Source of the DNA: Flavobacteriaceae bacterium
Lineage (GTDB): Bacteria; Bacteroidota; Bacteroidia; Flavobacteriales; Flavobacteriaceae
DNA: 32,000 nt
Assembly: GCA_965224465.1 (NCBI GenBank)
Contig: OZ245049.1
Span: 2,070,001 to 2,102,000 of the forward strand
Direction of reading: 5' to 3'
How positions within the stretch are numbered: the first letter of the stretch is position 1; every line of letters begins with the position of its first letter. This document shows positions 5,542 through 32,000 of this stretch, in pieces. A model generated the notes under the pieces. The model made no database searches and was not told the origin of the DNA. It was given only the letters and a program-made list of their open reading frames with translations. The position numbers and the translations under genes are program-made.

Positions 5542-5609
5542 CAGGTAACTCCTTGGTATTACTTGGTTTTAATAGTGATATTTCAGCTTAAAAAGCGTAT
5601 CTTTCTACT

Positions 5610-9717: not shown

Positions 9718-9731
9718 TTGTATATTTAATC

Positions 9732-9756
9732 ATAGGAAAGAATAATCCTTCCCTAT
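9732..9756 (-). other. Intercistronic RNA stem-loop between the giant gene and the porP/sprF gene (possible processing or stability element; not a canonical terminator)
   Basis: The minus-strand RNA AUAGGGAAG-GAUUAUU-CUUUCCUAU forms a 9-bp stem with one G-U pair and a 7-nt loop. No U-tract follows it. It lies within the 52-nt gap 9718..9769. Confidence 0.3.
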
Positions 9757-9769
9757 AAGAACTATCATT

Positions 9770-12700
9770 TTACTCGTTTATATAAATCCATGCTGCTATC
9801 CCTTCTGTTTTTCCATCATTGAAATTTAAAATATAATAATAAGTACCTGTTGAAACTTTCTGACTAGAACCTATTGTCATCTCACCACTAGAATAACCAT
9901 CCCACCATCTTGGACTTGCTTTTTTATCCCCATTGTGATGGTAACTGTAAATAATATTCCCCCATCTGTTATAAATTTTTAATTCAAAATCAGGGTGTAA
10001 TTCCACTAAGTTTTCAATTTTAAACACATCATTCACACCATCATTATTAGGCGTAAACACCGTTGGAATAACAAGCTTATTATTCTCTTCCCCATTTGGA
10101 ATTCCATCTCCATCACAATCAGCAATCGCCCATTCATCAGATTGAAGTTCCGTAATATTCACTTCTAAATAATCACAAAAATCATTTGGATCGGTGCCAT
10201 CAATTGCTTCTTGTCCATCTGTGACTCCATCTCCATCCGAATCTATATTATTTGGATCCGTCTTATTTCCGTTTGGATTTGCAGGCGTACTAGGATCGTC
10301 TATTCCTGTAGATTCCTCTGCATTGGTCAAGCCATCAGCATCACAATCTGCAACTAACCAGTCGCCTCCTTGAGTTTCCGTAACGCTTATTAGCGTATAA
10401 TCACATAGATCATTTGGATCGGTACCATCAATCGCTTCCTGTCCATCTGTGACTCCGTCTCTATCCGAATCTATATTATTTGGATCCGTCTTATTTCCGT
10501 TTGGATTGGCAGGCGTACTAGGATCGTCGATTCCTGTAGACTCCTCTGCATTGGTCAAGCCATCACTATCACAATCTGCTGTCAACCAATTCCCAGTCTG
10601 GGTTTCTGTAATCCTTGCAGTTATATAATCACAAGAGTCATTTGGATCGGTAGCTTCTGAATCTATTTTTGTATCCGACCCATCAAGTACCTCTTGCGCA
10701 TCCGTAACTCCATCTCCATCGGTATCTTTCTTGTTTGGATCTGTTGTGTTTCCGTTTGGATTTGCAGGCGTGCTTGGATCGTCGACGCCTGTGGTTTCTT
10801 CGCCATTGGTCAAACCATCACTATCACAATCTGCTGTCAACCAATTTCCTGCTTGGGTTTCTGTGATGCTTGCTACTGTCAAGGCACATGGGTCGTTTGG
10901 ATCTGTGCCATCTGTGGCCTCTTTTCCGTCCGTAACTCCATCTCCATCCGTATCACTCTTGTTTGGATCTGTTGTATTTCCGTTTGGATTTGCAGGGGTG
11001 CTTGGATCGTCGACGCCTGTGGTTTCTTCGCCGTTGGTCAAGCCGTCCGAGTCACAGTCTACTGTCAACCAATTTCCTGCTTGCGTTTCTGTAATACTTG
11101 CCGCTGTCAATGCACATGGATCGTTTGGATCTGTGCCATCTGTGGCTTCTTTTCCGTCCGTAACTCCATCTCCATCGCTATCTTTCTTGTTTGGATCTGT
11201 TGTATTTCCGTTTGGATTTGCAGGCGTGCTTGGATCATCGACTCCCGTGGTTTCTTCGCCATTGGTCAGTCCGTCCGAGTCACAATCTACTGTCAACCAA
11301 CTTCCTGCTTGGGTTTCTGTAATGCTTGCAACTGTCAATGCACATGGATCGTTTGGATCTGTGCCATCTGTGGCTTCTTTTCCGTCCGTAACTCCATCTC
11401 CATCGCTATCTTTCTTGTTTGGATCTGTTGTATTTCCGTTTGGATTTGCAGGCGTGCTTGGATCGTCGACGCCTGTGGTTTCTTCGCCATTGGTCAGTCC
11501 GTCCGAGTCACAATCTACTGTCAACCAACTTCCTGCTTGGGTTTCTGTAATGCTTGCAACTGTCAATGCACATGGATCGTTTGGATCTGTGCCATCTGTG
11601 GCTTCTTTTCCGTCCGTAACTCCATCTCCATCGGTATCTTTCTTGTTTGGATCTGTTTTGTTTCCATTTGGATTTGCAGGCGTGCTTGGATCGTCTATTC
11701 CAGTCGTTTCTTCACCATTGGTCAGTCCGTCCGAGTCACAATCTGCTGTCAACCAATTTCCAGACTGGGTTTCTGTGATGCTTGCCGCTGTCAAGGCACA
11801 TGGGTCGTTTGGATCCGTGCCATCTGTGGCTTCTTTTCCATCTGTAACTCCATCTCCATCCGTATCTTTCTTGTTTGGATCTGTTGTATTTCCGTTTGGA
11901 TTCGCAGGCGTGCTTGGATCGTCGATTCCTGTGGTTTCTTCGCCGTTGGTCAAACCGTCCGAATCACAGTCTACTGTCAACCAATTTCCTGATTGGGTTT
12001 CTGTGATGCTTGCTACTGTCAAGGCACATGGATCGTTTGGATCTGTGCCATCTGTGGCCTCTTTTCCGTCCGTAACTCCATCTCCATCCATATCTTTCTT
12101 GTTTGGATCTGTTGTGTTTCCATTTGGATTCGCAGGAGTGCTTGGATCGTCGACGCCTGTGGTTTCTTCGCCGTTGGTCAAGCCGTCCGAATCACAGTCT
12201 ACTGTCAACCAATTTCCTGATTGGGTTTCTGTGATGCTTGCTACTGTCAAGGCACATGGATCGTTTGGATCTGTGCCATCTGTGGCTTCTTTTCCGTCCG
12301 TAACTCCATCTCCATCGGTATCTTTCTTGTTTGGATCTGTTGTGTTTCCGTTTGGATTTGCAGGCGTGCTTGGATCGTCTATTCCAGTCGTTTCTTCACC
12401 ATTGGTCAGTCCGTCCGAATCACAATCTGCTGTCAACCAATTTCCAGACTGGGTTTCTGTGATGCTTGCCGCTGTCAATGCACATGGGTCGTTTGGATCT
12501 GTGCCATCTGTAGCCTCTTTTCCGTCTGTAACTCCATCTCCATCGGTATCACTCTTACTTGGATCTGTTGTGTTTCCGTTTGGATTTGCAGGCGTGCTTG
12601 GATCGTCGACACCTGTAGTTTCTTCGCCGTTGGTTAGTCCGTCTCCATCACAATCTACTGTCAACCAACTTCCTGCTTGCGTTTCTGTGATACTTGCTAC

Positions 12701-15700
12701 TGTCAATGCACATGGATCGTTTGGATCTGTGCCATCTGTGGCCTCTTTTCCGTCCGTAACTCCATCTCCATCGGTATCTTTCTTGTTTGGATCTGTTGTA
12801 TTTCCGTTTGGATTTGCAGGCGTGTTTGGATCGTCGATTCCTGTGGTTTCTTCGCCATTGGTCAAGCCGTCTCCATCACAATCTGCTGTCAACCAATTTC
12901 CTGCTTGGGTTTCTGTGATGCTTGCTACTGTCAACACACATGGATCGTTTGGATCTGTGCCATCTGTGGCTTCTTTTCCGTCCGTAACTCCATCTCCATC
13001 GGTATCTTTCTTGTTTGGATCTGTTTTGTTTCCATTTGGATTTGCAAGGGTGCTTGAATCGTCGACGCCTGTGGTTTCTTCACCATTGGTCAGTCCGTCT
13101 CCATCACAATCTACTGTCAACCAACTTCCTGCTTGCGTTTCTGTGATGCTTGCTGCTGTCAATGCACATGGATCGTTTGGATCTGTGCCATCTGTAGCCT
13201 CTTTTCCATCTGTAACTCCATCTCCATCGGTATCTTTCTTGTTTGGATCTGTTGTGTTTCCGTTTGGATTTGCAGTGGTGCTTGGATCGTCAATACCTGT
13301 GGTTTCTTCACCATTGGTCAGTCCGTCTCCATCACAATCTGCTGTCAACCAACTTCCTGCTTGGGTTTCTGTGATGCTTGCCGCTGTCAATGCACATGGA
13401 TCGTTTGGATCTGTGCCATCTGTGGCCTCTTTTCCATCTGTAACTCCATCTCCATCGGTATCTTTCTTGTTTGGATCTGTTGTGTTTCCGTTTGGATTTG
13501 CAGGCGTGCTTGGATCGTCGACACCTGTAGTTTCTTCGCCGTTGGTTAGTCCGTCTCCATCACAATCTACTGTCAACCAACTTCCTGCTTGCGTTTCTGT
13601 GATACTTGCTACTGTCAATGCACATGGATCGTTTGGATCTGTGCCATCTGTGGCCTCTTTTCCGTCCGTAACTCCATCTCCATCGGTATCTTTCTTGTTT
13701 GGATCTGTTGTATTTCCGTTTGGATTTGCTGGCGTGCTTGGATCGTCGATTCCTGTGGTTTCTTCGCCGTTGGTTAGTCCGTCTCCATCACAATCTGCTG
13801 TCAACCAATTTCCATACTGGGTTTCTGTGATGCTTGCCGCTGTCAATGCACATGGATCGTTTGGATCTGTGCCATCTGTGGCCTCTTTTCCGTCCGTAAC
13901 TCCATCTCCATCGGTATCTTTTTTGTTTGGATCTGTTGTGTTTCCGTTTGGATTTGCAAGCGTGCTTGGATCGTAGATTCCTGTGGTTTCTTCACCATTG
14001 GTTAGTCCGTCCGAGTCACAATCTGCTGTCAACCAACTTCCTGCTTGGGTTTCTGTGATGCTTGCTACTGTCAATGCACATGGGTCGTTTGGATCTGTGC
14101 CATCTGTGGCCTCTTTTCCATCCGTAACTCCATCTCCATCCGTATCACTCTTGTTTGGATCTGTTGTATTTCCGTTTGGATTTGCAGGGGTGCTTGGATC
14201 ATCGATTCCTGTGGTTTCTTCGCCGTTGGTCAAACCGTCACTATCACAATCTGCTGTCAACCAATTTCCTGCTTGGGTTTCTGTGATGCTTGCCGCTGTC
14301 AATGCACATGGATCGTTTGGATCTGTGCCATCTGTGGCCTCTTTTCCGTCCGTAACTCCATCTCCATCCGTATCTTTTTTGTTTGGATCTGTTGTATTTC
14401 CGTTTGGATTTGCAGGCGTGCTTGGATCGTCGATTCCTGTGGTTTCTTCACCGTTGGTCAGTCCGTCCGAGTCACAATCTGCTGTCAACCAATTTCCTGC
14501 TTGAGTTTCTGTGATGCTTGCTACTGTCAAGGCACATGGGTCGTTTGGATCTGTGCCATCTGTGGCTTCTTTTCCGTCCGTAACTCCATCTCCATCGGTA
14601 TCTTTCTTGTTTGGATCTGTTGTGTTTCCGTTTGGATTTGCAGGGGTGCTTGAATCGTCGACCCCTGTGGTTTCTTCTCCATTGGTCAGTCCGTCTCCAT
14701 CACAATCTGCTGTCAACCAATTCCCTGCTTGCGTTTCTGTGATACTTGCTACTGTCAATGTACATGGATCGTTTGGATCTGTGCCATCTGTGGCTTCTTT
14801 TCCGTCCGTAACTCCATCTCCATCCGTATCTTTTTTGTTTGGATCTGTTGTATTTCCGTTTGGATTTGCAGGGGTGCTTGGATCGTCGATTCCTGTGGTT
14901 TCTTCTCCGTTGGTCAAACCGTCTCCATCACAATCTGCTGTCAACCAATTCCCTGCTTGCGTTTCTGTAATACTTGCTACTGTCAATGCACATGGATCGT
15001 TTGGATCCGTGCCATCTGCAGCTTCTTTTCCATCTGTAACTCCATCTCCATCAGTATCACTCTTGTTTGGATCTGTTGTATTTCCGTTTGGATTTGCAGG
15101 CGTGCTTGGATCGTCGACTCCTGTGGTTTCTTCACCATTGGTCAATCCGTCCGAGTCACAATCTGCTGTCAACCAATTTCCTGCTTGAGTTTCTGTGATG
15201 CTTGCTACTGTCAATGCACATGGGTCGTTTGGATCTGTGCCATCTGTGGCTTCTTTTCCATCTGTAACTCCATCTCCATCGGTATCTTTCTTGTTTGGAT
15301 CTGTTGTGTTTCCATTTGGATTCGCAGGCGTGCTTGGATCGTCGATTCCTGTGGTTTCTTCGCCGTTGGTTAGTCCGTCCGAGTCACAATCTACTGTCAA
15401 CCAACTTCCTGCTTGCGTTTCTGTGATGCTTGCCGCTTTCAATACACATGGATCGTTTGGATCTGTGCCATCTGTGGCTTCTTTTCCGTCCGTAACTCCA
15501 TCTCCATCGGTATCACTCTTGTTTGGATCTGTTGTGTTTCCGTTTGGATTTGCAGGGGTGCTTGAATCGTCGACCCCTGTGGTTTCTTCTCCATTGGTCA
15601 GTCCGTCTCCATCACAATCTGCTGTCAACCAACTTCCTGCTTGCGTTTCTGTGATGCTTGCCGCTGTCAATGCACATGGATCGTTTGGATCTGCTTGCGT

Positions 15701-24700: not shown

Positions 24701-27700
24701 TGCAGCCGTTTGAAACATACTATAATTATAAACCACAGACATTTGCGTTAATTCTACAGGGAATTCAAGTGTTACTTCATAAACTGCCTCCCCTGTAATA
24801 TCGGTTCCATTGACACCATAAGCAGCCATATTATCTAAAACTCCATCGTATAACTCGGTAAAAGAATTGGCAGCACTTGTACTGTAATTTGTCAATGTTG
24901 TTGTGACGTCTTTTATTTTTACATCATCTATTGAATAATAACAATTTGGTGATTCTACAACATCTAAGACACCATCATTATCATCATCTATATCTACCAA
25001 ATCTTTTATACCATCATTATCTGTATCCGCACACAGACTTAAGAAATCCGACTGTGCATATTTCAAATATGTAGAGGTATAGTTTACCTTCCCTGAATCA
25101 GCAGTTATTTCTACACTATCTTCCAAACCATTGACACCAACATTGGTTGTTGGAAAAGCAAAATCTACTGTCTCATCCGTGGTTGCCCCTGCTTCGAGAG
25201 CATCTGAACAACCATCGTTGTCGGAATCAGAATCTAAGTGATTATAGATTCCATCACCATCCGTATCTGCATCACAATTTGTTTTCGGAAAATCGTGCGG
25301 ATCAAAACCAGCTTCATCAATCAGCAATTCTAATTCTCCATAGCCATTCGAATACGTTGTACCAGAAACTCCCAACAAGCGGTAATATTTATAGACCGCA
25401 CTGTTTTGAGTTACAGCAAACACATCTTCGTCAGGGATAGGATTTATTGTATGTGTACTACTTGTATTTAAATCTACCCATGTACTATCATCGTTACTCC
25501 CTTGCAAAGTAAGTACTCCATTATTAAAAAAACCATACGTACTTGCGTAATTAAACTTCAAACTTTCCAGTTCTAATGCGTTTGGTAATTCTACTTTATA
25601 AACTTCTTTTCCTGCGATGGCTTGTGAATTATTAAACCTTGGATTACTCGCTATTGTTTTTACTCCATCAATAGAACTCTCTATTGGATTTGCCGCATAG
25701 GTTAGCATTTCTGAACTCACAACAAAACCACTTACAGCACTTCGGTCTCCCGTTAGCGGAAGATCACTTATCGCATAATAACAATTCGGAGATTCTACAA
25801 CATCTAAAACACCATCATTATCATCATCTATATCTACCAAATCTTTTATGCCATCGCTATCTGTATCCGCACACAGACTTAAAAAATCTGATTGTGCATA
25901 TTTCAAATATGTAGAGGTGTAGTTTACCTCCCCAGAATCGGCAGAGGTTTCTATACTATCTTCCAAACCATTGACACCAACATTGGTCGTCGGAAAAGCA
26001 AAATCTACTGTCTCATCCGTGGTTGCACCAGCTTCAAAAGCATCAGAACAACCATCATTATCTGAATCAGAATCTAAGTGATTGTAGATTCCATCACCAT
26101 CTAGGTCATCTGTACAGACTGCCTTTGGAAAATCATGTGCATTAAAATCAACCATCGTAGGTGATATTTCGTACACCCTATTGTAGTATGTTTTTCCTGA
26201 AACCCCTAGGATTCTATATTTACTATAGACATCTCCTGTCTGATTAAAACTATAGGTATTGGTTCCGTTTACACCTTGAGTTTCAGACAAATTACCCGTT
26301 ACGCTTACCCAGTCCGTTCCATTAAATCCCTGCCACTTAAACACTGCAGCCGTTTGAAACATACTATAATTATAAACCACAGACATTTGCGTTAACTCTA
26401 CAGGAAATTCAAGTGTTACTTCATAAACTGCCTCCCCTGTAATATCGGTTCCATTGACACCATAAGCAGCCATATTATCTAGAACTCCATCATATAACTC
26501 GGTAAAAGAATTGGCAGCACTTGTACTGTAATTTGTTAATGTTGTTGTGGCGTCCTTTATTTTTACATCAGCTATTGAATAATAACAATTCGGTGATTCT
26601 ACAACATCTAAGACACCATCATTATCATCATCTATATCTACCAAATCTTTTATACCATCATTATCTGTATCCGCACACATACTTAAGAAATCCGACTGTG
26701 CATATTTTAAATATGTAGAGGTATAATTTAGTTTCCCTGAATCGGCAGATGTTTCTACACTATCTTCCAAACCATTGACACCCAAATTGGTAGTTGGAAA
26801 AGCAAAATCTACTGTCTCATCCGTAGTTGCCCCTGCTTCAAAAGCATCTGAACAACCATCACCATCTGAATCTAAATCTACATGGTTGTAAATGCCATCA
26901 TTATCTAGATCATCTGAACAGGTGTTTTTGGGAAAATCGTGCGGATCAAAACCAGCTTCATTAATCAGCAATTCTAATTCTCCATAGCCATTCGAATACG
27001 TAGTCCCAGAAACACCTAACAAGCGGTAATATTTATAGACTGCACTGTTTTGAGTTACAGCAAACACATCTTCGTCAGGAATAGGGTTTGTTGTATGTGT
27101 ACTACTTGTATTTAAATCTACCCATGTACTATCATCGTTACTTCCCTGCAAAATAAGTACTCCGTTATTAAAAAACCCATACGTACTGGCATAATTAAAC
27201 TTCAAACTTTCCAACTCTAATGCGTTTGGTAATTCTACTTTATAAACTTCTTTTCCTGCGATGGCTTGCGAATTATTAAACCTTGGATTACTCGCTGTTG
27301 TTTTTACTCCATCAATAGAACTCTCTATTGGATTTGCCGCATAGGTTAGCATTTCTGAACTCACAACAAAACCACTTACAGCACTTCGGTCTCCCGTTAG
27401 CGGAAGATCACTTATCGTATAATAACAATTCGGTGATTCTACAACATCTAAAACACCATCATTATCATCATCTATATCTACCAAATCTTTTATACCATCA
27501 TTATCTGTATCCGCACATAGACTTAAGAAACCCGACTGTGCATATTTCAAATATGTAGAGGTGTAGTTTACCTCCCCAGAATCGGCAGAGGTTTCTACAC
27601 TATCTTCCAAACCATTGACACCAACATTGGTCGTTGGAAAAGCAAAATCTGTAATTTCGTCTGTGGTTGCTCCAGCTTCAAAAGCATCTGAACAACCATC

Positions 27701-30700
27701 ATTATCTGAATCAGAATCTAAGTGATTGTAGATTCCATCACCATCTAGATCATCTGTACAGACTGCTTTTGGAAAATCATGTGCATTAAAATCAACTATA
27801 GTAGGTGATATTTCGTACACCCTATTGTAGTATGTTTTTCCTGAAACCCCTAGGATTCTATATTTACTATAAACATCTCCTGTCTGATTAAAACTATAGG
27901 TACTGGTTCCGTTTACACCTTGATTTTCAGACAAATTACCCGTTACGTTTATCCAGTCCGTTCCATTAAATGCTTGCCACTTAAACACTGCAGCCGTTTG
28001 AAACATACTATAATTATAAACCACAGATATTTGCGTTAACTCTACAGGAAATTCAAGTGTTACTTCATAAACTACCTCCCCTGTAATATTGGTTCCATCT
28101 ACACCATAAGCAGCCATATTATCTAAAACTCCATCGTATAACTCGGTAAAAGAATTGGCAGCACTTGTACTGTAATTTGTCAATGTTGTTGTGGCGTCTT
28201 TTATTTTTACATCAGCTATTGAATAATAACAATTTGGTGATTCTACGACATCTAAAATACCATCATTATCATCATCTAAATCCACATCATCCATAATACC
28301 ATCACCGTCTGTATCAACTGAAGGAAAAACAATCCCTATTGGATCTTTAATCTCTCCTCCTACAGTACTTTCATCTCCCGCTTCGCCATCAGTTAATGTA
28401 TAGCTCAGGACAGGCACATTTAGCCCTCCAATTAACTCAGAAGAAATAGCGAAATTTTTTGTAGTATAACTCGCATCATTTGCTCCAGGAATGGAAGACC
28501 CAAATTTACGAATGAGATCAATAGAAGTAGATCCATGCCAATATAATTTAACAGCAACAGATTCTCCAGGGTTGTTACACTCCACGGTATAGTTTAACAA
28601 ACCAAAAGGATAATCATAGGCACTGTCAAGTTGCCCTACTTCGTTTTCTAACAATCCGTCTATCTGAATAATTTTATTACAAGTAGCACTTGTAATTTCA
28701 AGTGTTATATAAGATTTCCCTAGAGCATCTTCTAAAGAAGCAACATTCCCTTGTGCAGAATCTAGTGTTCCGTCTCCATTACCATCCCCATTATTAGGTC
28801 CCGCATCTTCTACAGAAGCACTTATTCCATCTCCATCGTCTGTTAAACACTGTTTTATTACTGGGTCTATTACATTTGCATAGGTTGCAATATAATTTGG
28901 AATCCCATCGTTATTCAAATCTACAGCATCTACTAGTCCATCATTATTCGTATCTGCTCCCGTAAATTGATAATCAACTTCCAACTTTGTAGTAGCACCT
29001 GATTCATACGCATCCGAACAACCGTCACCATCAGAATCTAAATCTAAATGATTTGGAATTGTATCATTATCTATATCGCTATCACAACTAACTGAGATCC
29101 CTCCATGTATCCTCCCAGGCAACCAACCATGTGTAAAATTCACAAAGGCTAGCCCTGTATATTCTATTTTTGTAACTTTTAAATCAGAGGCGTCAAAGCT
29201 TATATATTTACCCGCTTGTAAATTTGGAGCAATTGCATAGGTTGACATTAAGCCATAGGTATTATCTTGAACCAACTGAGATCCCGCTTCCCCTAAAGCC
29301 AATCCGTTTTTATCTACAAACCTAGTACCCCAACCATTTGCATTATTATACACAAGCGTGGTTCCGTCTATCAAAGTAACTTTAAACTCACTAATTGACT
29401 CATGTGGCCCCGAAGGCTCAAAATCGCTCCACCTATAGATCAGACCTTCAATATAAAACGGATTTCCTGTACCTGTTTCTGTAAAAGTAATTGTTTGCGT
29501 AGTTCCTGTTGAAGCCCTAGAATAATAACCATCAGCACTACTAGCTATCCCAGAAATAGCAGGACTAAAACGAACGTCAAAAGAAGCTCCCGAACTTAGA
29601 ACAAAAGGTCCTTGAGTAGCTGTAGAAGACATCGCAACTTTTCCCAAAGACACATTGGTTGAAGCAGCTGTTTCAAAATTAGCCAATTCTCCCCTTGATA
29701 GAGAAACACCTCCTAGGCATTCATCAACATCTAAAATCCCATCATTATCATCATCTATATCTAAGACATCACCTATACCATCATTATCAGAATCCGCACA
29801 AGCGTTTAAGCCTGCTGAAATAGCAATGCTATAATCTAAGGTATAATTAATGGTTCCTGTTGCCCCATTTTCAAATTGATCTAGCAATCCATTATTATTA
29901 AGATCTACCCCTGTATTATAATTTACACTATCATTGTTTGACGCCAAAACCACTCCTACTTCTACACTATCCGAACATCCATCGCCATCAGAATCTAAAT
30001 CTAGATGGTTTGGAATCCCATCACTGTCGGTATCTGGACAAGTAAAAATTGGATTATTTAAAGCTGCTACCGCAGAAACATTAATAGACCACCAATATTC
30101 TCCTATATTAACATTAAAAGAAAAAGCACTTACCTCTGTATTTATTAACTTTATAGAACCTTCCATGTAAGACCCTATATTATAAGCTACATCTGTAGTT
30201 TCGTTAACATGTAAATTTGTTCCACCTGCTCCTCCTGCAAACACCTTTTCAATATCAGTATTAAAAGTAGCTTTCATTGCTTGTGCTCCAGCTCCAAAAG
30301 ACCAAAAATGTACATGAGGCATATATATTGGTTCGGAGAATGTTAACGTATAAGTTCCCGCTTTATCTAATTGAGGAATAAAACTACTAAAAGGCTTACC
30401 ATCTGGTTTAGGGCAAAATTGTGCATTAGAACTTTGCCAATAATTATAAGTAGTAGCACGTGTTCCTACAGGAGCCTCTAAAGTAACCGTTATTGTTCTA
30501 TCTAACATTACCATTTCACCAGTATAAATAGTCCCTGATTGAGATTTCCAATCAATAAAAGTCTGTTTGTTTGCTAAAGGAGCACATTCCCCTACCTCTT
30601 CAGCGGGAGGACATTCATCCTTATCTAAAATCCCATCATTATCATCATCTATATCTGTAATATCTAAAACACCATCGCCATCTGTATCGACACAATTAGG

Positions 30701-32000
30701 ATTTAAAGTTACCGTTACTCCATTACTACTAGGACTGTAGCAACTATTTGCAGCATTATAATAATACGCGTAGTAAACGCCTGCTGCAGAAATAGGCATC
30801 GTTTCTACACTTGATAAACCGTCACTAGCATCCTTATCTGTACTCCACACTAACACAGCTTCTGCAGGTGTATTTCCAGTATGTAATGTATTTAGATTCA
30901 TGCTCGGAATCGCGCAAGTATTTGTCATACTCGTTGCAGATAAAGGAGGAGAAATAATTCCAGAAGGACAGCATAAATCTGGTGTAGTTGTAGTTTCTAC
31001 CTTTTCACCCGCCTTAAAGAAAACACCATTCATTATCACTGCATTTTCTTGTGTACCTATCCCAGTTCCAAATCCACTAGGAATTGTTGTGTCTATAGAA
31101 GTAGTTTCAAAAGTACCGTCTCCCTTTCCTAAGAAAACAGAAACCCCTGAATTTGCCCCAATATTATCATAAGCAGATACATAATCTATCTTACTATCTT
31201 TATTTACATCCACTAAGAAAGATTGCTCTGCATTGGTATAGTTCCCTATCCTAACATTTCCTATTGTAGAAGATATTGTAAGGGCAGTGGTACTTGCATT
31301 GGTATTTATAAGTCCAGTCCCATTGTTTAGGAAACACATTATTTTAATCTCTGAACCATCATTAAAAGCATGTACATAATCCAAATAACCATCGTTATTC
31401 ACATCTGAAAAAGAAGAATATTCATTCTCTGCCGAACCAGAACTATTTGTATATCCAGAATCTTCTAGAGTAATATCAAAAAAGAGATTGGTATGAAACC
31501 TTCCATCTCCATACCCAAGCCAAGCTTGCATTCTCCCTGTAGATCCATCGTCAAAAGCACCTACTAAATCGGCAATATTATCTCGGTTTAAATCCTTTAA
31601 AAAAAACTGTTCCGACCCCGAAACCCCACTCGTTCCTTTAGCTGTGGCACCCGTAAGATAAGAACTAATTCTATTTCTTATAAAAGTACCATCACCGTTA
31701 CCAAGATAAGAATGTATTTTATTATCATTTCCTGAGAAAACATAATCTAATATAAAATCTCCATTTACATCAGCTAACCAGCCTTGTTCTGAGTTTGTTT
31801 CTCCAGCAAAAACTTGCCCATCGGTAACCTTAGAAAAACCTGTAGTTACAATAGCTGAAGTTACAAAAGTACCATCTCCATTATTTAAATAAACATAAAT
31901 GCTATTGTTTCCATCCTCTGTAATGTGTACAACATCTTTATCTCCATCGTTATCAACATCACCAAAACAAGAAGAAGAAGAAGCTCCTTTCCCAAAGACT
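9770..32000 (-). CDS. Giant modular acidic cell-surface protein, T9SS type-B cargo (partial; N-terminus beyond window end; at least 7,409 codons in window)
   Basis: The track ORF 9770..31531 is 7,253 aa. I translated 31999->31532 in the same frame with no stop and no Met (VFGKGASSSSCFGDVDNDGDKDVVHITEDGNNSIYVYLNNGDGTFVTSAIV...GAFDDGSTGR-MQAW...), so the ORF is open to the window edge. The stop is TAA at 9772-9770. It ends in a type-B T9SS sorting domain and is followed by a PorP/SprF gene. Confidence 0.95.
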   Translation of the reverse strand, partial: VFGKGASSSSCFGDVDNDGDKDVVHITEDGNNSIYVYLNNGDGTFVTSAIVTTGFSKVTDGQVFAGETNSEQGWLADVNGDFILDYVFSGNDNKIHSYLGNGDGTFIRNRISSYLTGATAKGTSGVSGSEQFFLKDLNRDNIADLVGAFDDGSTGRMQAWLGYGDGRFHTNLFFDITLEDSGYTNSSGSAENEYSSFSDVNNDGYLDYVHAFNDGSEIKIMCFLNNGTGLINTNASTTALTISSTIGNVRIGNYTNAEQSFLVDVNKDSKIDYVSAYDNIGANSGVSVFLGKGDGTFETTSIDTTIPSGFGTGIGTQENAVIMNGVFFKAGEKVETTTTPDLCCPSGIISPPLSATSMTNTCAIPSMNLNTLHTGNTPAEAVLVWSTDKDASDGLSSVETMPISAAGVYYAYYYNAANSCYSPSSNGVTVTLNPNCVDTDGDGVLDITDIDDDNDGILDKDECPPAEEVGECAPLANKQTFIDWKSQSGTIYTGEMVMLDRTITVTLEAPVGTRATTYNYWQSSNAQFCPKPDGKPFSSFIPQLDKAGTYTLTFSEPIYMPHVHFWSFGAGAQAMKATFNTDIEKVFAGGAGGTNLHVNETTDVAYNIGSYMEGSIKLINTEVSAFSFNVNIGEYWWSINVSAVAALNNPIFTCPDTDSDGIPNHLDLDSDGDGCSDSVEVGVVLASNNDSVNYNTGVDLNNNGLLDQFENGATGTINYTLDYSIAISAGLNACADSDNDGIGDVLDIDDDNDGILDVDECLGGVSLSRGELANFETAASTNVSLGKVAMSSTATQGPFVLSSGASFDVRFSPAISGIASSADGYYSRASTGTTQTITFTETGTGNPFYIEGLIYRWSDFEPSGPHESISEFKVTLIDGTTLVYNNANGWGTRFVDKNGLALGEAGSQLVQDNTYGLMSTYAIAPNLQAGKYISFDASDLKVTKIEYTGLAFVNFTHGWLPGRIHGGISVSCDSDIDNDTIPNHLDLDSDGDGCSDAYESGATTKLEVDYQFTGADTNNDGLVDAVDLNNDGIPNYIATYANVIDPVIKQCLTDDGDGISASVEDAGPNNGDGNGDGTLDSAQGNVASLEDALGKSYITLEITSATCNKIIQIDGLLENEVGQLDSAYDYPFGLLNYTVECNNPGESVAVKLYWHGSTSIDLIRKFGSSIPGANDASYTTKNFAISSELIGGLNVPVLSYTLTDGEAGDESTVGGEIKDPIGIVFPSVDTDGDGIMDDVDLDDDNDGILDVVESPNCYYSIADVKIKDATTTLTNYSTSAANSFTELYDGVLDNMAAYGVDGTNITGEVVYEVTLEFPVELTQISVVYNYSMFQTAAVFKWQAFNGTDWINVTGNLSENQGVNGTSTYSFNQTGDVYSKYRILGVSGKTYYNRVYEISPTIVDFNAHDFPKAVCTDDLDGDGIYNHLDSDSDNDGCSDAFEAGATTDEITDFAFPTTNVGVNGLEDSVETSADSGEVNYTSTYLKYAQSGFLSLCADTDNDGIKDLVDIDDDNDGVLDVVESPNCYYTISDLPLTGDRSAVSGFVVSSEMLTYAANPIESSIDGVKTTASNPRFNNSQAIAGKEVYKVELPNALELESLKFNYASTYGFFNNGVLILQGSNDDSTWVDLNTSSTHTTNPIPDEDVFAVTQNSAVYKYYRLLGVSGTTYSNGYGELELLINEAGFDPHDFPKNTCSDDLDNDGIYNHVDLDSDGDGCSDAFEAGATTDETVDFAFPTTNLGVNGLEDSVETSADSGKLNYTSTYLKYAQSDFLSMCADTDNDGIKDLVDIDDDNDGVLDVVESPNCYYSIADVKIKDATTTLTNYSTSAANSFTELYDGVLDNMAAYGVNGTDITGEAVYEVTLEFPVELTQMSVVYNYSMFQTAAVFKWQGFNGTDWVSVTGNLSETQGVNGTNTYSFNQTGDVYSKYRILGVSGKTYYNRVYEISPTMVDFNAHDFPKAVCTDDLDGDGIYNHLDSDSDNDGCSDAFEAGATTDETVDFAFPTTNVGVNGLEDSIETSADSGEVNYTSTYLKYAQSDFLSLCADTDSDGIKDLVDIDDDNDGVLDVVESPNCYYAISDLPLTGDRSAVSGFVVSSEMLTYAANPIESSIDGVKTIASNPRFNNSQAIAGKEVYKVELPNALELESLKFNYASTYGFFNNGVLTLQGSNDDSTWVDLNTSSTHTINPIPDEDVFAVTQNSAVYKYYRLLGVSGTTYSNGYGELELLIDEAGFDPHDFPKTNCDADTDGDGIYNHLDSDSDNDGCSDALEAGATTDETVDFAFPTTNVGVNGLEDSVEITADSGKVNYTSTYLKYAQSDFLSLCADTDNDGIKDLVDIDDDNDGVLDVVESPNCYYSIDDVKIKDVTTTLTNYSTSAANSFTELYDGVLDNMAAYGVNGTDITGEAVYEVTLEFPVELTQMSVVYNYSMFQTAAVFKWQAFNGTDWVSVTGNLSETQGVNGTNTYSFNQTGDVYSKYRILGVSGKTYYNRVYEISPTMVGFNTHDFPKAVCADDLDGDGIYNHLDSDSDNDGCSDAFEAGATTDETTGFAFPTTNVGVNGLEDSIETSADSGEVNYTSTYLKYAQSDFLSLCADTDSDGIKDLVDIDDDNDGVLDVVESPNCYYTISDLPLTGDRSTVDGFVVSSEMLTYATNPIESSIDGVKTTASNPRFNNSQAIAGKEVYKVELANALELESLKFNYASTYGFFNNGVLTLQGSNDDNTWIDLNTSSTHITNPIPDEDVFAVTQNSAVYKYYRLLGVSGTTYSNGYGELELLIDEAGFDPQDYPKPNCDADTDGDGIYNHLDSDSDNDGCSDALEAGATTDETVNFAFPAANVGVNGLEDSVETSADSGKLNYTSTYLKYAQSDFLSLCADVDSDGIKDLVDIDDDNDGILDKDEMYYCASGDGLAVSSLAQSVTVKNGTAWESDITDLGTGTVLGQLRIDDPQNFLRSVASMQNGNKVGMRIVYGSGSALKATYLFKLEFIPRNGVYFDEGLDYRFYRSPSGTANSNYSSWEIISTNVGNAIYQNYPDAQDGNIQGLTDSDEILPGTILKEGEGTYYDWDLTPSNWTADNHYNPADTAFWGMVFNDFSSITAINPMLIDLNFHQGQILGSDGFGVEMSILEYFTVPCSGEKDTDGDGVPDYLDLDSDNDGCSDSMEASTTGTSTNDVVNYNTGADVNSNGLLDGFESGTSSTINYTSTYTASALSAAKITINTVLGTTTDITGLTTLTLSAGASAQVATTFSNGVPDYTDDTASLTYNWQVDTGSGFVDFSPAETGENLILALVNATMVDNVYKVIVSHPSSYCTQENQTKLTLILPIAVDDAYTTNQDISIILTPLGNDSESATGGVVSVFSINAVTLTPSIVQTIPVTNGTVEVATNGTISFIPDANYVGSVSFSYEIKDVAGGLATANIQIAVAAIVIIDTDGDGVTDAQEVLDGTDPNDPCALTAASITETQAGSWLTSDCDSDGLTNGEETTGIDDPSTPANPNGNTTDPNKKDTDGDGVTDGKEATDGTDPNDPCALTAASITETQSGNWLTADCDSDGLTNGEETTGIDDPSTPANPNGNTTDPNKKDTDGDGVTDGKEATDGTDPNDPCALTVASITETQSGSWLTSDCDGDGLTNGEETTGVDDPSTPANPNGNTTDPNKKDTDGDGVTDGKEATDGTDPNDPCALTVASITETQSGNWLTADCDSDGLTNGEETTGVDDPSTPANPNGNTTDPNKSDTDGDGVTDGKEATDGTDPNDPCALTASSITETQTGNWLTADCDGDGLTNGEETTGVDDPSTPANPNGNTTDPNKKDTDGDGVTDGKEATDGTDPNDPCALTVASITETQSGNWLTVDCDSDGLTNGEETTGVDDPSTPANPNGNTTDPNKKDTDGDGVTDGKEATDGTDPNDPCALTVASITETQSGNWLTSDCDSDGLTNGEEITGVDDPSTPANPNGNTTDPNKKDTDGDGVTDGKEATDGTDPNDPCALTAASITETQVGSWLTADCDGDGLTNGEETTGIDDPSTTANPNGNTTDPNKKDTDGDGVTDGKEATDGTDPNDPCALTAASITETQSGNWLTADCDSDGLTNGEETTGIDDPSTPANPNGNTTDPNKKDTDGDGVTDGKEATDGTDPNDPCALTAASITETQSGNWLTADCDSDGLTNGEETTGIDDPSTPANPNGNTTDPNKKDTDGDGVTDGKEATDGTDPNDPCALTAASITETQAGSWLTVDCDGDGLTNGEETTGVDDSSTLANPNGNTTDPNKKDTDGDGVTDGKEATDGTDPNDPCALTVASITETQAGNWLTADCDGDGLTNGEETTGVDDSSTPANPNGNTTDPNKKDTDGDGVTDGKEATDGTDPNDPCALTAASITETQAGSWLTADCDGDGLTNGEETTGIDDPSTPANPNGNTTDPNKKDTDGDGVTDGKEATDGTDPNDPCALTAASITETQSGNWLTADCDSDGLTNGEETTGVDDPNTPANPNGNITDPNKSDTDGDGVTDGKEATDGTDPNDPCALTAASITETQAGSWLTSDCDSDGLTNGEETTGIEDPSTPANPNGNTTDPNKKDTDGDGVTDGKEATDGTDPNDPCALTVASITETQAGNWLTADCDSDGLTNGEETTGIDDPSTPANPNGNTTDPNKKDTDGDGVTDGKEATDGTDPNDPCALTVASITETQAGNWLTADCDSDGLTNGEETTGIDDPSTPANPNGNTTDPNKKDTDGDGVTDGKEATDGTDPNDPCALTVASITETQSGNWLTSDCDSDGLTNGEEITGVDDPSTPANPNGNTTDPNKKDTDGDGVTDGKEATDGTDPNDPCVLTVASITETQSGNWLTADCDGDGLTNGEETTGIDDPSTPANPNGNTTDPSKSDTDGDGVTDGKEATDGTDPNDSCALTVASITEAQAGNWLAADCDGDGLTNGEETTGIDDPSTPANPNGNTTDPNKKDTDGDGVTDGKEATDGTDPNDPCALTVASITETQSGNWLTADCDGDGLTNGEETTGVDDPSTPANPNGNTTDPNKKDTDGDGVTDGKEATDGTDPNDPCALTAASITETQAGNWLTADCDGDGLTNGEETTGVDDSSTPANPNGNTTDPNKKDTDGDGVTDGKEATDGTDPNDPCALTAASITETQAGSWLTADCDGDGLTNGEETTGIDDPSTPANPNGNTTDPNKKDTDGDGVTDGKEATDGTDPNDPCVLTVASITETQSGSWLTSDCDGDGLTNGEETTGIDDPSTPANPNGNKTDPNKKDTDGDGVTDGKEATDGTDPNDPCVLTVASITETQVGNWLTADCDSDSLTNGEETTGIDDPSTPANPNGNTTDPNKKDTDGDGVTDGKEATDGTDPNDPCALTVASITETQSGNWLTVDCDGDGLTNGEETTGVDDSSTPANPNGNTTDPNKKDTDGDGVTDGKEATDGTDPNDPCALTAASITETQADPNDPCALTAASITETQAGSWLTADCDGDGLTNGEETTGVDDSSTPANPNGNTTDPNKSDTDGDGVTDGKEATDGTDPNDPCVLKAASITETQAGSWLTVDCDSDGLTNGEETTGIDDPSTPANPNGNTTDPNKKDTDGDGVTDGKEATDGTDPNDPCALTVASITETQAGNWLTADCDSDGLTNGEETTGVDDPSTPANPNGNTTDPNKSDTDGDGVTDGKEAADGTDPNDPCALTVASITETQAGNWLTADCDGDGLTNGEETTGIDDPSTPANPNGNTTDPNKKDTDGDGVTDGKEATDGTDPNDPCTLTVASITETQAGNWLTADCDGDGLTNGEETTGVDDSSTPANPNGNTTDPNKKDTDGDGVTDGKEATDGTDPNDPCALTVASITETQAGNWLTADCDSDGLTNGEETTGIDDPSTPANPNGNTTDPNKKDTDGDGVTDGKEATDGTDPNDPCALTAASITETQAGNWLTADCDSDGLTNGEETTGIDDPSTPANPNGNTTDPNKSDTDGDGVTDGKEATDGTDPNDPCALTVASITETQAGSWLTADCDSDGLTNGEETTGIYDPSTLANPNGNTTDPNKKDTDGDGVTDGKEATDGTDPNDPCALTAASITETQYGNWLTADCDGDGLTNGEETTGIDDPSTPANPNGNTTDPNKKDTDGDGVTDGKEATDGTDPNDPCALTVASITETQAGSWLTVDCDGDGLTNGEETTGVDDPSTPANPNGNTTDPNKKDTDGDGVTDGKEATDGTDPNDPCALTAASITETQAGSWLTADCDGDGLTNGEETTGIDDPSTTANPNGNTTDPNKKDTDGDGVTDGKEATDGTDPNDPCALTAASITETQAGSWLTVDCDGDGLTNGEETTGVDDSSTLANPNGNKTDPNKKDTDGDGVTDGKEATDGTDPNDPCVLTVASITETQAGNWLTADCDGDGLTNGEETTGIDDPNTPANPNGNTTDPNKKDTDGDGVTDGKEATDGTDPNDPCALTVASITETQAGSWLTVDCDGDGLTNGEETTGVDDPSTPANPNGNTTDPSKSDTDGDGVTDGKEATDGTDPNDPCALTAASITETQSGNWLTADCDSDGLTNGEETTGIDDPSTPANPNGNTTDPNKKDTDGDGVTDGKEATDGTDPNDPCALTVASITETQSGNWLTVDCDSDGLTNGEETTGVDDPSTPANPNGNTTDPNKKDMDGDGVTDGKEATDGTDPNDPCALTVASITETQSGNWLTVDCDSDGLTNGEETTGIDDPSTPANPNGNTTDPNKKDTDGDGVTDGKEATDGTDPNDPCALTAASITETQSGNWLTADCDSDGLTNGEETTGIDDPSTPANPNGNKTDPNKKDTDGDGVTDGKEATDGTDPNDPCALTVASITETQAGSWLTVDCDSDGLTNGEETTGVDDPSTPANPNGNTTDPNKKDSDGDGVTDGKEATDGTDPNDPCALTVASITETQAGSWLTVDCDSDGLTNGEETTGVDDPSTPANPNGNTTDPNKKDSDGDGVTDGKEATDGTDPNDPCALTAASITETQAGNWLTVDCDSDGLTNGEETTGVDDPSTPANPNGNTTDPNKSDTDGDGVTDGKEATDGTDPNDPCALTVASITETQAGNWLTADCDSDGLTNGEETTGVDDPSTPANPNGNTTDPNKKDTDGDGVTDAQEVLDGSDTKIDSEATDPNDSCDYITARITETQTGNWLTADCDSDGLTNAEESTGIDDPSTPANPNGNKTDPNNIDSDRDGVTDGQEAIDGTDPNDLCDYTLISVTETQGGDWLVADCDADGLTNAEESTGIDDPSTPANPNGNKTDPNNIDSDGDGVTDGQEAIDGTDPNDFCDYLEVNITELQSDEWAIADCDGDGIPNGEENNKLVIPTVFTPNNDGVNDVFKIENLVELHPDFELKIYNRWGNIIYSYHHNGDKKASPRWWDGYSSGEMTIGSSQKVSTGTYYYILNFNDGKTEGIAAWIYINE
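9773..10075 (-). other. T9SS type-B C-terminal sorting domain (gliding-motility-associated CTD; CHU_C / TIGR04131-type, accession from memory)
   Basis: The last ~101 aa are LVIPTVFTPNNDGVNDVFKIENLVELHPDFELKIYNRWGNIIYSYHH...PRWWDGYS...STGTYYYILNFNDGKTEGIAAWIYINE. This matches the consensus FTPNGDG.ND.F.I...........I.NRWG..V......WDG.....G.YYY......G....G.I.L. Confidence 0.85.
10244..21724 (-). repeat. In-frame tandem array of 228-bp (76-aa) units: 48 near-identical units (10727..21724, including one 54-bp insertion) plus divergent units R49 (255 bp, 10472..10726) and R50 (10244..10471); a partial 51st unit continues to about 10079
   Basis: Unit consensus: DTDGDGVTDGKEATDGTDPNDPCALT[AV]ASITETQ[AS]G[NS]WLT[ASV]DCD[SG]DGLTNGEETTG[IV]DD[PS]STPANPNGNTTDPNK[KS]. 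I split the translated ORF unit by unit. The 228-nt period also shows in the plus-strand shadow ORFs, for example starts at 11993 and 12221. Boundaries were checked at nucleotide level: the GAT of R1 is at 21724-21722, preceded by ...IQIAVAAIVII, and the GAT of the partial unit is at 10243-10241. Confidence 0.97.
15637..15744 (-). repeat. Perfect 54-bp direct duplication inside one 228-bp unit (in frame, adds 18 aa)
   Basis: ctgcttgcgtttctgtgatgcttgccgctgtcaatgcacatggatcgtttggat occurs at 15637-15690 and again at 15691-15744. The protein reads ...ITETQA-DPNDPCALTAASITETQA-GSWL. The trinucleotide ctg follows both copies, giving junction microhomology. Confidence 0.9.
21725..22045 (-). other. 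Cadherin-like / bacterial Ig-like (VCBS or tandem-95 type) domain immediately N-terminal to the repeat array
   Basis: LPIAVDDAYTTNQDISIILTPLGNDSESATGG...VTNGTVEVATNGTISFIPDANYVGSVSFSYEIKDVAGGLATANIQIAV fits the pattern A.DD...T..D......L.ND.......V..G.V....G...Y.P...Y.G.D.F.Y...D..G....A.V.I.V. Motif-level call only. Confidence 0.45.
23318..28249 (-). repeat. Higher-order tandem repeat, 3 x 1644 bp (548 aa); each copy is an A module (804 bp) plus a B module (840 bp)
   Basis: The codons for VVESPNCYY of the A modules start at 28249, 26605 and 24961 (exact 1644-nt spacing). B1 starts at 27445. The equivalent position after the third copy, 23317, reads LDKDEMYYC instead. Plus-strand shadow ORFs at 24040, 25684 and 27328 are 1644 nt apart and nearly identical. 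Similarity extends about 65 nt further upstream into the preceding DIDDDNDG linker. Confidence 0.9.
31080..32000 (-). other. FG-GAP / VCBS-type repeats (integrin-alpha-like beta-propeller blades), continuing off-window
   Basis: Recurrent pattern of hydrophobic-x-DVN/D-x-DG-x-x-D-hydrophobic-V followed by ...NNGDGTF: FGDVDNDGDKDVVHI...YLNNGDGTF; LADVNGDFILDYVF...YLGNGDGTF; LKDLNRDNIADLVGA...WLGYGDGRF; FSDVNNDGYLDYVHA...FLNNGTG; LVDVNKDSKIDYVSA...FLGKGDGTF. Confidence 0.55.

Follow-up and report, generated by a model that had tools for sequence, protein, structure and literature searches.

Most of the 32,000-nucleotide stretch analysed here (the window) is occupied by part of one giant gene, whose product we interpret, with a probability of roughly 0.6, as a T9SS substrate of a Flavobacteriaceae-like bacterium and a static adhesin with a Ca-loaded stalk that would attach to surfaces bearing glycans. 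In the ORF reading of the window, the minus-strand frame is open at 9770..31999 (7,409 codons and a TAA stop; all features given below with coordinates lie on this strand, and residue numbers refer to the part of the protein within the window). As stated in the first-pass annotation, this single frame is uninterrupted, with no stop or frameshift over 22.2 kb, and lacks its N-terminus, which lies beyond the window end; the signal peptide consequently falls outside the window, and FG-GAP-like blades are still running at the window edge. A mass of at least 770 kDa was computed from the part within the window. The gene is real but incomplete in the window, and encodes a cell-surface protein of more than 770 kDa.

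The C-terminus consists of a type-B T9SS sorting domain (9773..10069, aa 7311–7409), for which both CHU_C in Pfam (E = 2.4e-24, 85.7 bits versus a cutoff of 27) and TIGR04131 in NCBIfam (45.3 bits versus a cutoff of 35) scored above their cutoffs. The gene for a PorP/SprF-like outer-membrane protein of 307 aa follows the stop codon of the cargo after 52 nt (8794..9717; PorP_SprF in Pfam, E = 6.4e-86; TIGR03519, 286.8 bits versus a cutoff of 90.6). Profile searches thus recovered both elements of the type-B cargo and adjoining PorP/SprF gene that had been proposed before. Fifteen nucleotides downstream of the PorP-like gene lies a further gene (7201..8778), missed in the earlier annotation, coding for a PorE-like protein of 525 aa with a signal peptide, a PD40 propeller, a CarboxypepD_reg domain and an OmpA_C peptidoglycan-binding domain (OmpA E = 1e-12). 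This protein matched the NCBIfam models T9SS_PorE (E = 1.5e-78, 265 bits versus a cutoff of 600) and CHU_0125_OmpA (E = 3e-100, 337 bits versus a cutoff of 620); since 265 bits is below the cutoff of 600, it is PorE-like and no PorE equivalog. The match spans positions 215–597 of the 648 in the PorE profile (from 141 in CHU_0125), so the protein has no counterpart to the N-terminal part of PorE, and a lipobox Cys is absent. Instead of copying the sprB–sprF arrangement, as had been claimed, the locus is a triad of cargo, PorP-like and PorE-like genes. The triad is conserved in 77 of the 78 evaluable loci having the closest PorP relatives (GTDB representative genomes; Lutibacter, Winogradskyella and related MAGs; closest relative 60% identical), and the cargo varies among them. 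Orthology of the cargo with the neighbours of these PorP genes was rejected, none of the 78 cargos containing the repeat unit described below. At least one TSP3-array cargo, from Flagellimonas flava (L116), has a PorP neighbour and no PorE-like neighbour.

PorE, PorP and PG1035 of Porphyromonas gingivalis assemble into a complex, and SprF is a binding partner of SprB (PMC9143113). Flavobacterium johnsoniae has five operons of the cargo/PorP-like/PorE-like type; Fjoh_3952 depends on Fjoh_3951 and appears to have a static anchorage through Fjoh_3950, a homologue of PorE (PMC12618676). Mobile cargo such as SprB has no adjacent porE-like gene (PMC9143113, PMC12618676), and the dynamic F. johnsoniae cargos SprB, Fjoh_4750 and also Fjoh_1123 are all encoded without one (PMC12618676). 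The window locus resembles Fjoh_3952/3951/3950 and PG1035/PorP/PorE in that a type-B CTD cargo gene is followed by PorP/SprF-like and PorE-like genes in one orientation, and by analogy the triad would link the window cargo to static, peptidoglycan-tethered type-B cargo, by a rule (cargos with a PorE-like gene next to them are anchored statically) that is based on one F. johnsoniae cargo and P. gingivalis. The window cargo is, however, far larger than Fjoh_3952 and PG1035 and unrelated to them outside the CTD, and its PorE-like protein is shorter than the PorE of these triads, has no lipobox Cys and stays under the equivalog cutoffs.

A mobile, SprB-like gliding adhesin, whose CTD and PorP partner would load it onto the gliding track and whose long fibre would give traction, is an unlikely alternative, even though sprB–sprF likewise pairs a giant T9SS substrate bearing a type-B CTD with a PorP/SprF-family gene beside it. 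SprB has roughly 6,500 aa, a size to which that of the window protein is comparable, the window protein being the larger. Moreover, relatives carry the name 'gliding motility-associated C-terminal domain-containing protein', which is a domain-based label only. Against this alternative, no SprB repeats (PF13573) were found at E ≤ 0.01 in aa 1–3440, in sampled units or in the C-terminus, nor at E ≤ 5 in individual blocks; the absence of SprB-type repeats reported earlier therefore extends to every part that was scanned. In addition, the window locus has a TSP3-type repeat tract and a PorE-like gene directly after PorP, as is the case for static Fjoh_3952 (PMC12618676, PMC9143113), whereas sprB–sprF has no PorE-like gene (PMC9143113).

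The anchor is preceded by 51 tandem units of 76 aa (10064..21724, aa 3426–7312), identified with a unit HMM, TRF and TSP3_bac. The unit HMM placed 51 units across aa 3426–7312, and TRF reported an array at 10181..21725 with a period of 228 nt, 50.3 copies and 87% matches. The earlier figure of 3,827 repeat residues was about right (3,850–3,890), and over half of the protein is indeed an acidic double-TSP3 repeat tract. Each unit contains two TSP3-type DxDxDGxx[D/N]xxE motifs (101 in the array), a single segment containing Trp, and two Cys that are conserved. The composition given before, 13 Asp and 4 Glu against 3 Lys with a net charge of −14 per unit, proved exact, with the two Cys to be added to it, and the array as a whole has a net charge of about −730. 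TSP3_bac (PF18884) matched with E = 1.1e-22 (80 bits versus a cutoff of 25) in 4 stretches within 241 aa (3.2 units), read as about two per unit and agreeing with the two motifs per unit already noted. The last three units are divergent, and a 94-aa unit beginning near aa 5401 contains a 54-nt (18-aa) internal duplication (15637..15747; TRF period 54, 2.1 copies, 100% match). The GC content rises from 0.37 to 0.48 where the array lies, a jump that is probably due to the content of Asp, Gly, Thr and Pro codons and not to foreign origin.

Identity among the units is 93% in protein and 91% in DNA, and their pN/pS is 0.135; the array is therefore under selection and does not look like an assembly artefact; this selection acts at the protein level. 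Only two unit pairs reach at least 99% nucleotide identity. Long ORFs on the plus strand of the array, reaching 1,864 aa and translating into low-complexity sequence, were rejected as antisense artefacts of codon bias, because it is the minus frame that has the Pfam matches and the pN/pS of 0.135. A mis-assembled 11.5-kb array, or a gene that is not intact, is extremely unlikely: although short-read assemblies break at arrays of this kind, relatives are in many cases short 'partial' fragments, the longest exact string repeated in the array reaches 319 nt, one unit holds the internal duplication and an IS66 element is close by, the frame is open throughout, collapsed or duplicated reads would not yield units that differ by 9% in nucleotides at mostly synonymous positions, and similar arrays of 12–35 units are present in finished or large-contig genomes. 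The ends of the IS66 element near the giant gene showed no convincing terminal inverted repeats.

An AlphaFold2 (AF2) model of three units was confident as a whole (pLDDT 90.7, pTM 0.79). The unit model had no significant match among solved structures (Foldseek against the PDB, best E = 2.5), and the repeat unit had none by sequence. In 50 homologues, each of the two Cys of the unit is conserved to 90% or more. The unit is predicted to bind Ca2+, to form disulfides and to be rigid. A different use of the same tract, in which a released or loosely bound matrix polyanion would cross-link cells, exopolymers and mineral surfaces (as a biofilm or aggregate scaffold, or in Ca2+ buffering) and would not act as a head-bearing stalk, would suit the charge of the array and its 101 Ca-type motifs. 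Some T9SS cargos are released, and sfGFP–type-B CTD fusions were detected in F. johnsoniae culture supernatant in secretion assays (PMC12618676). The conserved order of head, array and CTD together with the PorP/PorE-like partners nevertheless points to a cell-bound orientation, and purifying selection on specific non-acidic positions (Trp, Cys, Pro) goes beyond what composition would demand, which makes such a matrix role quite improbable.

The order of domains described in the first-pass annotation held in its main points, including the Asp-rich linkers between blocks, for which both motif types were counted nine times each (DSD[GN]DGCSD and D[IL]DDDNDG[IV]LD); corrections concern the A and B modules, which are homologous and of predicted discoidin fold, and one block that is a borderline choice-of-anchor U domain. 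The (A-B)x3 region comprises six Cys-bracketed modules (23390..28246) starting at aa 1254, 1522, 1802, 2070, 2350 and 2618 and separated by TSP3-like Asp-rich linkers of about 100 aa. In keeping with the earlier description, it is a threefold super-repeat, with a period of exactly 548 aa and copies that are 91–94% identical. A and B align with 28% identity (E = 5e-10) and are homologous to each other. A profile of the modules matched CBM32 chains in the PDB (2ls6, E = 1.2e-5; 7nsn, E = 5e-5), and the top Foldseek matches of an AF2 module model (pLDDT 81) were FVIII C2 and CBM32 (probability 1.0, TM 0.55–0.66). The N-terminal Cys does not vary, and most alignment rows have a C-terminal PKxxC segment; the modules share this Cys bracket with discoidin domains, in which a disulfide joins the N- and C-termini. 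The window modules themselves had no Pfam match, even at E ≤ 5, and did not reach the gathering score of PF00754; on five of ten homologue segments F5_F8_type_C was found below threshold (E = 1.6e-4 to 0.08; 13.5–22 bits versus the PF00754 cutoff of 28.2). Profile, AF2 and Foldseek results together identify the A and B modules as six predicted discoidin/F5-8-type-C/CBM32-fold domains, and most likely the stalk holds these putative sugar-binding-type domains away from the cell.

The N-proximal end of the head in the window consists of FG-GAP/VCBS-like beta-propeller blades (31010..31999, aa 1–330, cut by the window end), which were expected on this side and gave an FG-GAP_3 match in Pfam with E = 7.9e-23 in 5 stretches; the blades are 50% identical to propeller regions of one compared protein (P0003). 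They are followed by a probable Ig-like domain of the CHU_C-associated type (30665..30982, aa 340–445), a weak assignment from an Ig_7 match of E = 0.01, under the Pfam cutoff, with 35–46% matches in metagenome loci. Block b1 (30020..30616, aa 462–660) had no Pfam or PDB sequence match and no homologue among the proteins fetched for comparison. Block b2 (29075..29686, aa 772–975), likewise without a Pfam or PDB match, is about 30% identical to segments of two compared proteins (P0050, P0072). The next block (28328..28624, aa 1126–1224) is the borderline choice-of-anchor U domain (NF041766 in NCBIfam, 32.6 bits versus a cutoff of 32), with 47–51% identity to segments of four compared proteins (P0269, P0026, P0025 and P0030). 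C-terminal to the discoidin-type modules, block b4 (22595..23311, aa 2897–3135) had no Pfam or PDB match and no homologue among the proteins fetched for comparison, and it precedes a bacterial Ig/cadherin-like domain (21743..22042, aa 3320–3419; Big_9 in Pfam, E = 3.9e-12; Cadherin_5, E = 6.2e-8), as had been predicted. Pfam TSP_3 matched weakly in the head linkers (E = 4.8e-4). Among the matches returned (1,900–6,017 aa), UJ101_02214 was the best for aa 1–3440, with 43% of the query aligned at 51% identity, and aa 1–460 found in metagenomes only partial matches of about 35–50% identity or short matches to Asp-rich linkers.

The composition of the head also bears on a protective surface brush, in which dense polyanionic fibres would fend off phages, grazers and colloids, with the head domains in a secondary role. 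A tract of such extreme length and charge would fit a brush, as would the second modular surface protein encoded next door. Nothing specific speaks in its favour, however, and the elaborate, duplicated lectin-fold head argues for ligand binding, so we consider it very unlikely. The neighbouring gene codes for a modular surface protein that is paralogous to the giant cargo.

The C-terminal part of the protein has many relatives. A module of TSP3 units and a type-B CTD was found in 2,427 cluster representatives among 1.84 billion, and hundreds to thousands of proteins from Bacteroidota have TSP3 units right in front of a type-B CTD. Most of those from one of the searches are seen only as short fragments, and two that were checked begin at the end of a contig. 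In most relatives the unit is immediately N-terminal to CHU_C. These 'TSP3_bac + CHU_C' proteins, for example those of Maribacter aquivivus (WP_282049785), Psychroserpens sp. NJDZ02 (QCE40326) and Zobellia nedashkovskayae (WP_226975887), share with the window protein the Cys-stapled double-TSP3 unit (40–66% identity) before the type-B CTD, and have variable heads and copy-number polymorphism: strains of M. aquivivus have 30 versus 35 units, by a looser count, and are 99.3% identical elsewhere. They differ from the window cargo in unit period (62–73 aa versus 76 aa), in the composition of the head and in the number of full-length units (1–27, or 35 in Maribacter by the looser count, versus 51). 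With 27 full-length units in the next-longest array found, the 51 units of the window are the longest such array detected among the 1.84 billion cluster representatives. None of the relatives is characterised, and their annotation goes no further than 'T9SS type B sorting domain-containing' or 'gliding motility-associated C-terminal domain-containing' protein. The earlier claim of novelty stands in that no characterised homologue was found, but not as regards the C-terminal pairing of TSP3 units with a type-B CTD, which is common in Bacteroidota. The window protein is an extreme example of a common protein type without characterised members and not a new kind of system; what is exceptional in it is the copy number of 51 and the total size.

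RTX adhesins project ligand-binding domains on extender regions that are stiffened by Ca2+ (PMC5550230, PMC7493085, PMC4083281). The window cargo is like the RTX giant adhesins (MpIBP of Marinomonas primoryensis, LapA/FrhA) in having a predicted Ca2+-binding repeat region by the anchor and putative binding domains at the distal end, where RTX adhesins carry sugar-, peptide- or surface-binding domains. Their secretion differs, the window cargo being a T9SS substrate with a C-terminal anchor whereas RTX adhesins are exported by T1SS and held by an N-terminal retention module, and so does the repeat fold, which is a loop-rich TSP3 unit in the model of the former and a BIg beta-sandwich in the latter. 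No Pfam or NCBIfam matches to RTX nonapeptide repeats, a T1SS C-terminal signal or BIg extender repeats were found in the window protein, and the RTX giant adhesins are a functional analogue and no relative. The type 3 repeats of thrombospondin and COMP ('calcium wire') likewise have DxDxDGxxDxxE-type motifs, and they have disulfides between repeats, as predicted for the window array; the window unit, unlike these, has an extra Trp-containing segment and forms a 51-fold homogeneous array, and thrombospondin (2rhp) came only at rank 20 in Foldseek (E = 6), with no significant structural match. As a tentative proposal, which we rate slightly below even odds, the Cys-stapled double-TSP3 unit of 62–76 aa may be an 'extender' whose Ca2+-dependent fold is uncharacterised and which corresponds, in the T9SS, to the RTX BIg extender, with a copy number tuned by gain and loss of units to set the reach of static type-B cargos.

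As a static stalk adhesin, the protein would be exported first by Sec, after which the T9SS translocon would recognise the CTD. The cognate PorP-like shuttle would receive the cargo and keep it on the surface, and the PorE-like partner would tether the cargo–PorP complex to peptidoglycan, so that the protein is proposed to stay put and not to travel on the gliding track. The repeat array beside the anchor, Ca2+-loaded and with one disulfide per unit, would form a long polyanionic stalk lifting the ligand-binding head past the cell surface layer, where the discoidin-type domains may bind glycans on algae, particles or hosts; gain or loss of units would alter the length of the stalk. A role of FG-GAP/cadherin/TSP3 repeat proteins of marine flavobacteria in adhering to marine snow and to the mucilage of algae was proposed earlier (PMC2668756).

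Marine Flavobacteriia commonly have giant T9SS surface proteins, but since short-read assemblies break at the repeat arrays, these proteins are hardly ever seen in full; the window offers an intact 11.5-kb array in its genomic context. It provides a test case for whether PorE-like neighbours separate static from mobile type-B cargos, for the way in which the T9SS deals with a cargo that exceeds 770 kDa and is extremely acidic, and for TSP3 arrays as Ca2+-dependent spacers that may set the reach of adhesins in seawater.

The giant cargo is encoded by a single minus-strand reading frame (9770..31999) that runs for 7,409 codons without interruption to a TAA stop; since the frame at the window edge still lies within FG-GAP-like blades, the N-terminus is absent from the window, as the first-pass annotation had stated. 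The part inside the window (residues numbered from its edge) amounts to 770 kDa with a net charge of -1,127. Profile searches bore out the domains proposed there from reading the sequence: FG-GAP_3 in the N-terminal part within the window (E 7.9e-23), Big_9/Cadherin_5 for the cadherin/Ig-like domain (aa 3320-3419), TSP3_bac about twice per repeat unit, in keeping with two TSP3-like motifs in each (E 1.1e-22), and, for the type-B T9SS sorting domain (CTD), CHU_C at the C-terminus (E 2.4e-24) together with an NCBIfam match to TIGR04131 exceeding its cutoff. SprB repeats, already noted as missing, gave no profile match in the parts of the giant that were scanned. A choice-of-anchor-U match (aa 1126-1224) was borderline, and the blocks aa 462-660, 772-975 and 2897-3135 had no Pfam or PDB match.

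Tandem Repeats Finder placed the repeat array at 10181..21725 (period 228 nt, 50.3 copies, 87% matches), and an HMM of the unit found 51 units (aa 3426-7312), spaced by exactly 76 aa in 47 cases, the final three being divergent. The consensus unit, KDTDGDGVTDGKEATDGTDPNDPCALTVASITETQAGNWLTADCDSDGLTNGEETTGIDDPSTPANPNGNTTDPNK, contains two Cys, one Trp and, exactly as first counted, 13 Asp and 4 Glu against 3 Lys. One unit carries a perfect 54-nt tandem duplication (15637-15747, minus strand; ADPNDPCALTAASITETQ repeated), which adds 18 aa, making it 94 aa long, and a third Cys. The array might have been an assembly artefact; however, the units, with 93% protein and 91% DNA identity, differ mostly synonymously (pS 0.26, pN 0.036, ratio 0.135), their similarity is independent of how far apart they stand, DNA identity reaches at least 99% in only two unit pairs, and the longest recurring exact string is 319 nt. 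This pattern indicates an old array under selection and is unlike that from collapsed or duplicated reads. Long plus-strand ORFs across the array were rejected as antisense artefacts. Exactly over the array (10001-22000), GC rises from ~0.37 to ~0.48 and AT skew falls to ~-0.45, a shift attributed to Asp/Gly/Thr/Pro/Asn codon content rather than foreign origin. A count of the Bacteroidota O-glycosylation sequon D[ST][AILVMT] over aa 1-7312 gave 17 in the head (the region N-proximal to the array) and only one in the 3,887-aa array, despite the latter's Thr content of 18%.

The alternating Cys-bracketed modules A and B of the head, described earlier as (A-B)x3, form a super-repeat of exactly 548 aa with copies 91-94% identical, and A and B are themselves homologous (28% identity, E 5e-10). 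Neither module had a Pfam match in the window, and F5_F8_type_C gave sub-threshold scores only, in five of ten homologue segments. The module profile matched CBM32 structures (2ls6, E 1.2e-5; 7nsn, 5e-5), and the AF2 model of the module (pLDDT 81, pTM 0.81) matched factor VIII C2 and CBM32 modules (probability 1.0; TM 0.55-0.66). The Cys bracket corresponds to the disulfide joining N- and C-termini that is typical of discoidin domains. Profile, model and bracket together identify a predicted discoidin/CBM32 fold. No full-length relative of the 3,440-aa head was found in the homologue search. The best match, UJ101_02214 of Flavobacteriaceae bacterium UJ101, was 51% identical over 43% of the query (~53% by local BLAST, over a 1,440-aa stretch in the discoidin region), and propeller-region matches fell on other proteins; on these sequence comparisons the giant reads as a mosaic of shuffled modules.

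A three-unit query returned 343 proteins, nearly all with TSP3_bac and CHU_C; among the matches listed, all were <400 aa and several marked 'partial'. In both of the two examined, the gene starts where its contig does and PorP_SprF comes after it; a PorE-like gene is next in one and absent in the other. Searching two units against 1.84 billion cluster representatives gave 2,427 proteins at E ≤ 1e-3 (214 at E ≤ 1e-30). When full-length units were counted in the best 150 of these and in other proteins fetched, the next-longest arrays had 27, 14, 12 and 12 units, versus 51 in the giant. Among the organisms with such arrays are Maribacter aquivivus, Psychroserpens sp. NJDZ02, Zobellia nedashkovskayae and Geojedonia litorea, whose unit-bearing proteins carry generic names only. 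Copy number is polymorphic within a species, since two M. aquivivus variants (30 vs 35 units by a looser count) are exactly five 62-aa units apart and 99.3% identical elsewhere. Three Z. nedashkovskayae strain variants (P0322, P0389 and P0390) have lengths of 4,537, 4,753 and 4,969 aa, set apart by multiples of 216 aa, and the change sits in a region between the TSP3 units, not inside them, which is a second type of length polymorphism in such cargos.

The adjoining PorP/SprF-like gene was found where expected (8794..9717, minus strand), starting 52 nt past the cargo stop. In the gap (9718-9769, minus strand) sits a hairpin of 13 bp (-13.1 kcal/mol, z -2.46) that has no U-tract and could affect read-through or mRNA stability between cargo and shuttle. 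Another 15 nt past the PorP-like gene lies a PorE-like gene (7201..8778, minus strand; 525 aa), unmentioned in the first-pass annotation, with a PD40 propeller, CarboxypepD_reg and OmpA_C. Its NCBIfam matches (PorE, E 1.5e-78; CHU_0125 OmpA, E 3e-100) are both under equivalog cutoffs, and the PorE profile aligned only from position 215, so the protein lacks a counterpart of the PorE N-terminal part. Through the PorP-like protein (45-60% identity), 80 loci (L001-L080) were fetched from Lutibacter, Winogradskyella, Bizionia, Lacinutrix, Flavobacterium and others, 78 of them with enough sequence to judge. A PorE-like gene lies directly 3' of PorP in 77 of the 78, an ORF, mostly large and in several cases extending past the stored 10 kb, lies 5' of every PorP, and 45 of the 78 cargos have a CTD resembling that of the window. 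The 76-aa unit was absent from all these cargos (up to 10 kb each), and thus the cassette is conserved while the cargo is swapped. Many assemblies stop a few kb upstream of PorP, within the cargo (e.g. L003-L006, L009, L012, L014, L017); in Flavobacteriaceae genomes, contigs are probably often broken by repeat-rich type-B cargos.

The locus had been likened to sprB-sprF of F. johnsoniae; that pair has no porE-like neighbour (Gorasia et al., PMC9143113), whereas here a PorE-like gene follows the PorP-like gene. The same authors showed that PorE, PorP and PG1035 form a complex and that SprF binds SprB, and proposed that PorP-PorE-like complexes tether non-mobile type-B cargos to the wall (PMC9143113). 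In a 2025 study, Fjoh_3952 depends on its cognate shuttle Fjoh_3951, next to which the PorE homologue Fjoh_3950 is encoded, and appears static; the dynamic cargos SprB, Fjoh_4750 as well as Fjoh_1123 have no adjoining PorE homologue gene (PMC12618676). The order cargo, PorP-like shuttle, PorE-like gene is the same in Fjoh_3952/3951/3950 and in the window, and by this gene order the giant resembles the static class rather than sprB-sprF.

A second large surface-protein gene (1-4385, minus strand) opens with a signal peptide, MKKTFLIRKASLIALLIFVLSIHGFYG, and is cut by the window start after at least 1,461 aa. Its product has 17 TSP3-like motifs, 38-41% identity to the giant's discoidin-plus-linker modules and no Pfam match; its NCBIfam BamM-like matches probably reflect Asp-rich TSP3-like motifs only. 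The protein is probably a modular adhesin paralogous to the giant. Between it and the PorE-like gene lies an IS66-family element (5200-7073, plus strand) with TnpB/Orf2 (5200-5541, plus strand, E 1.9e-29) and a DDE transposase (5610-7073, plus strand, E 2.7e-86); no tnpA-like ORF or convincing terminal inverted repeats were found in it. GC is only 28.5% at 4001-5000.

AlphaFold modelling of two to three units, suggested in the first-pass annotation, gave a confident three-unit model of loops and short helices (AF2, pLDDT 90.7, pTM 0.79; 50-sequence alignment, both Cys at least 90% conserved). A structural match did not follow: the unit matched no solved structure by sequence or fold (best Foldseek E 2.5), thrombospondin-1 scoring E 6. 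Its motifs suggest Ca2+ binding, disulfides and stiffness. The giant is a new, extreme T9SS type-B cargo of a known sort with PorP-like and PorE-like partners, and its T9SS secretion route is well supported. Most plausibly, its C-proximal half is a Ca2+-loaded stalk, and its head bears binding domains of lectin-fold and other types; that the giant is anchored statically, that the tract works mechanically as a stalk and that the head binds glycans is inferred. The proposed stalk parallels the logic of RTX adhesins, which have Ca2+-stiffened extenders (PMC5550230, PMC7493085, PMC4083281). A stalk adhesin would agree with what had been proposed before, namely that repeat proteins of this kind fasten marine flavobacteria to algal mucilage and to particles (PMC2668756).
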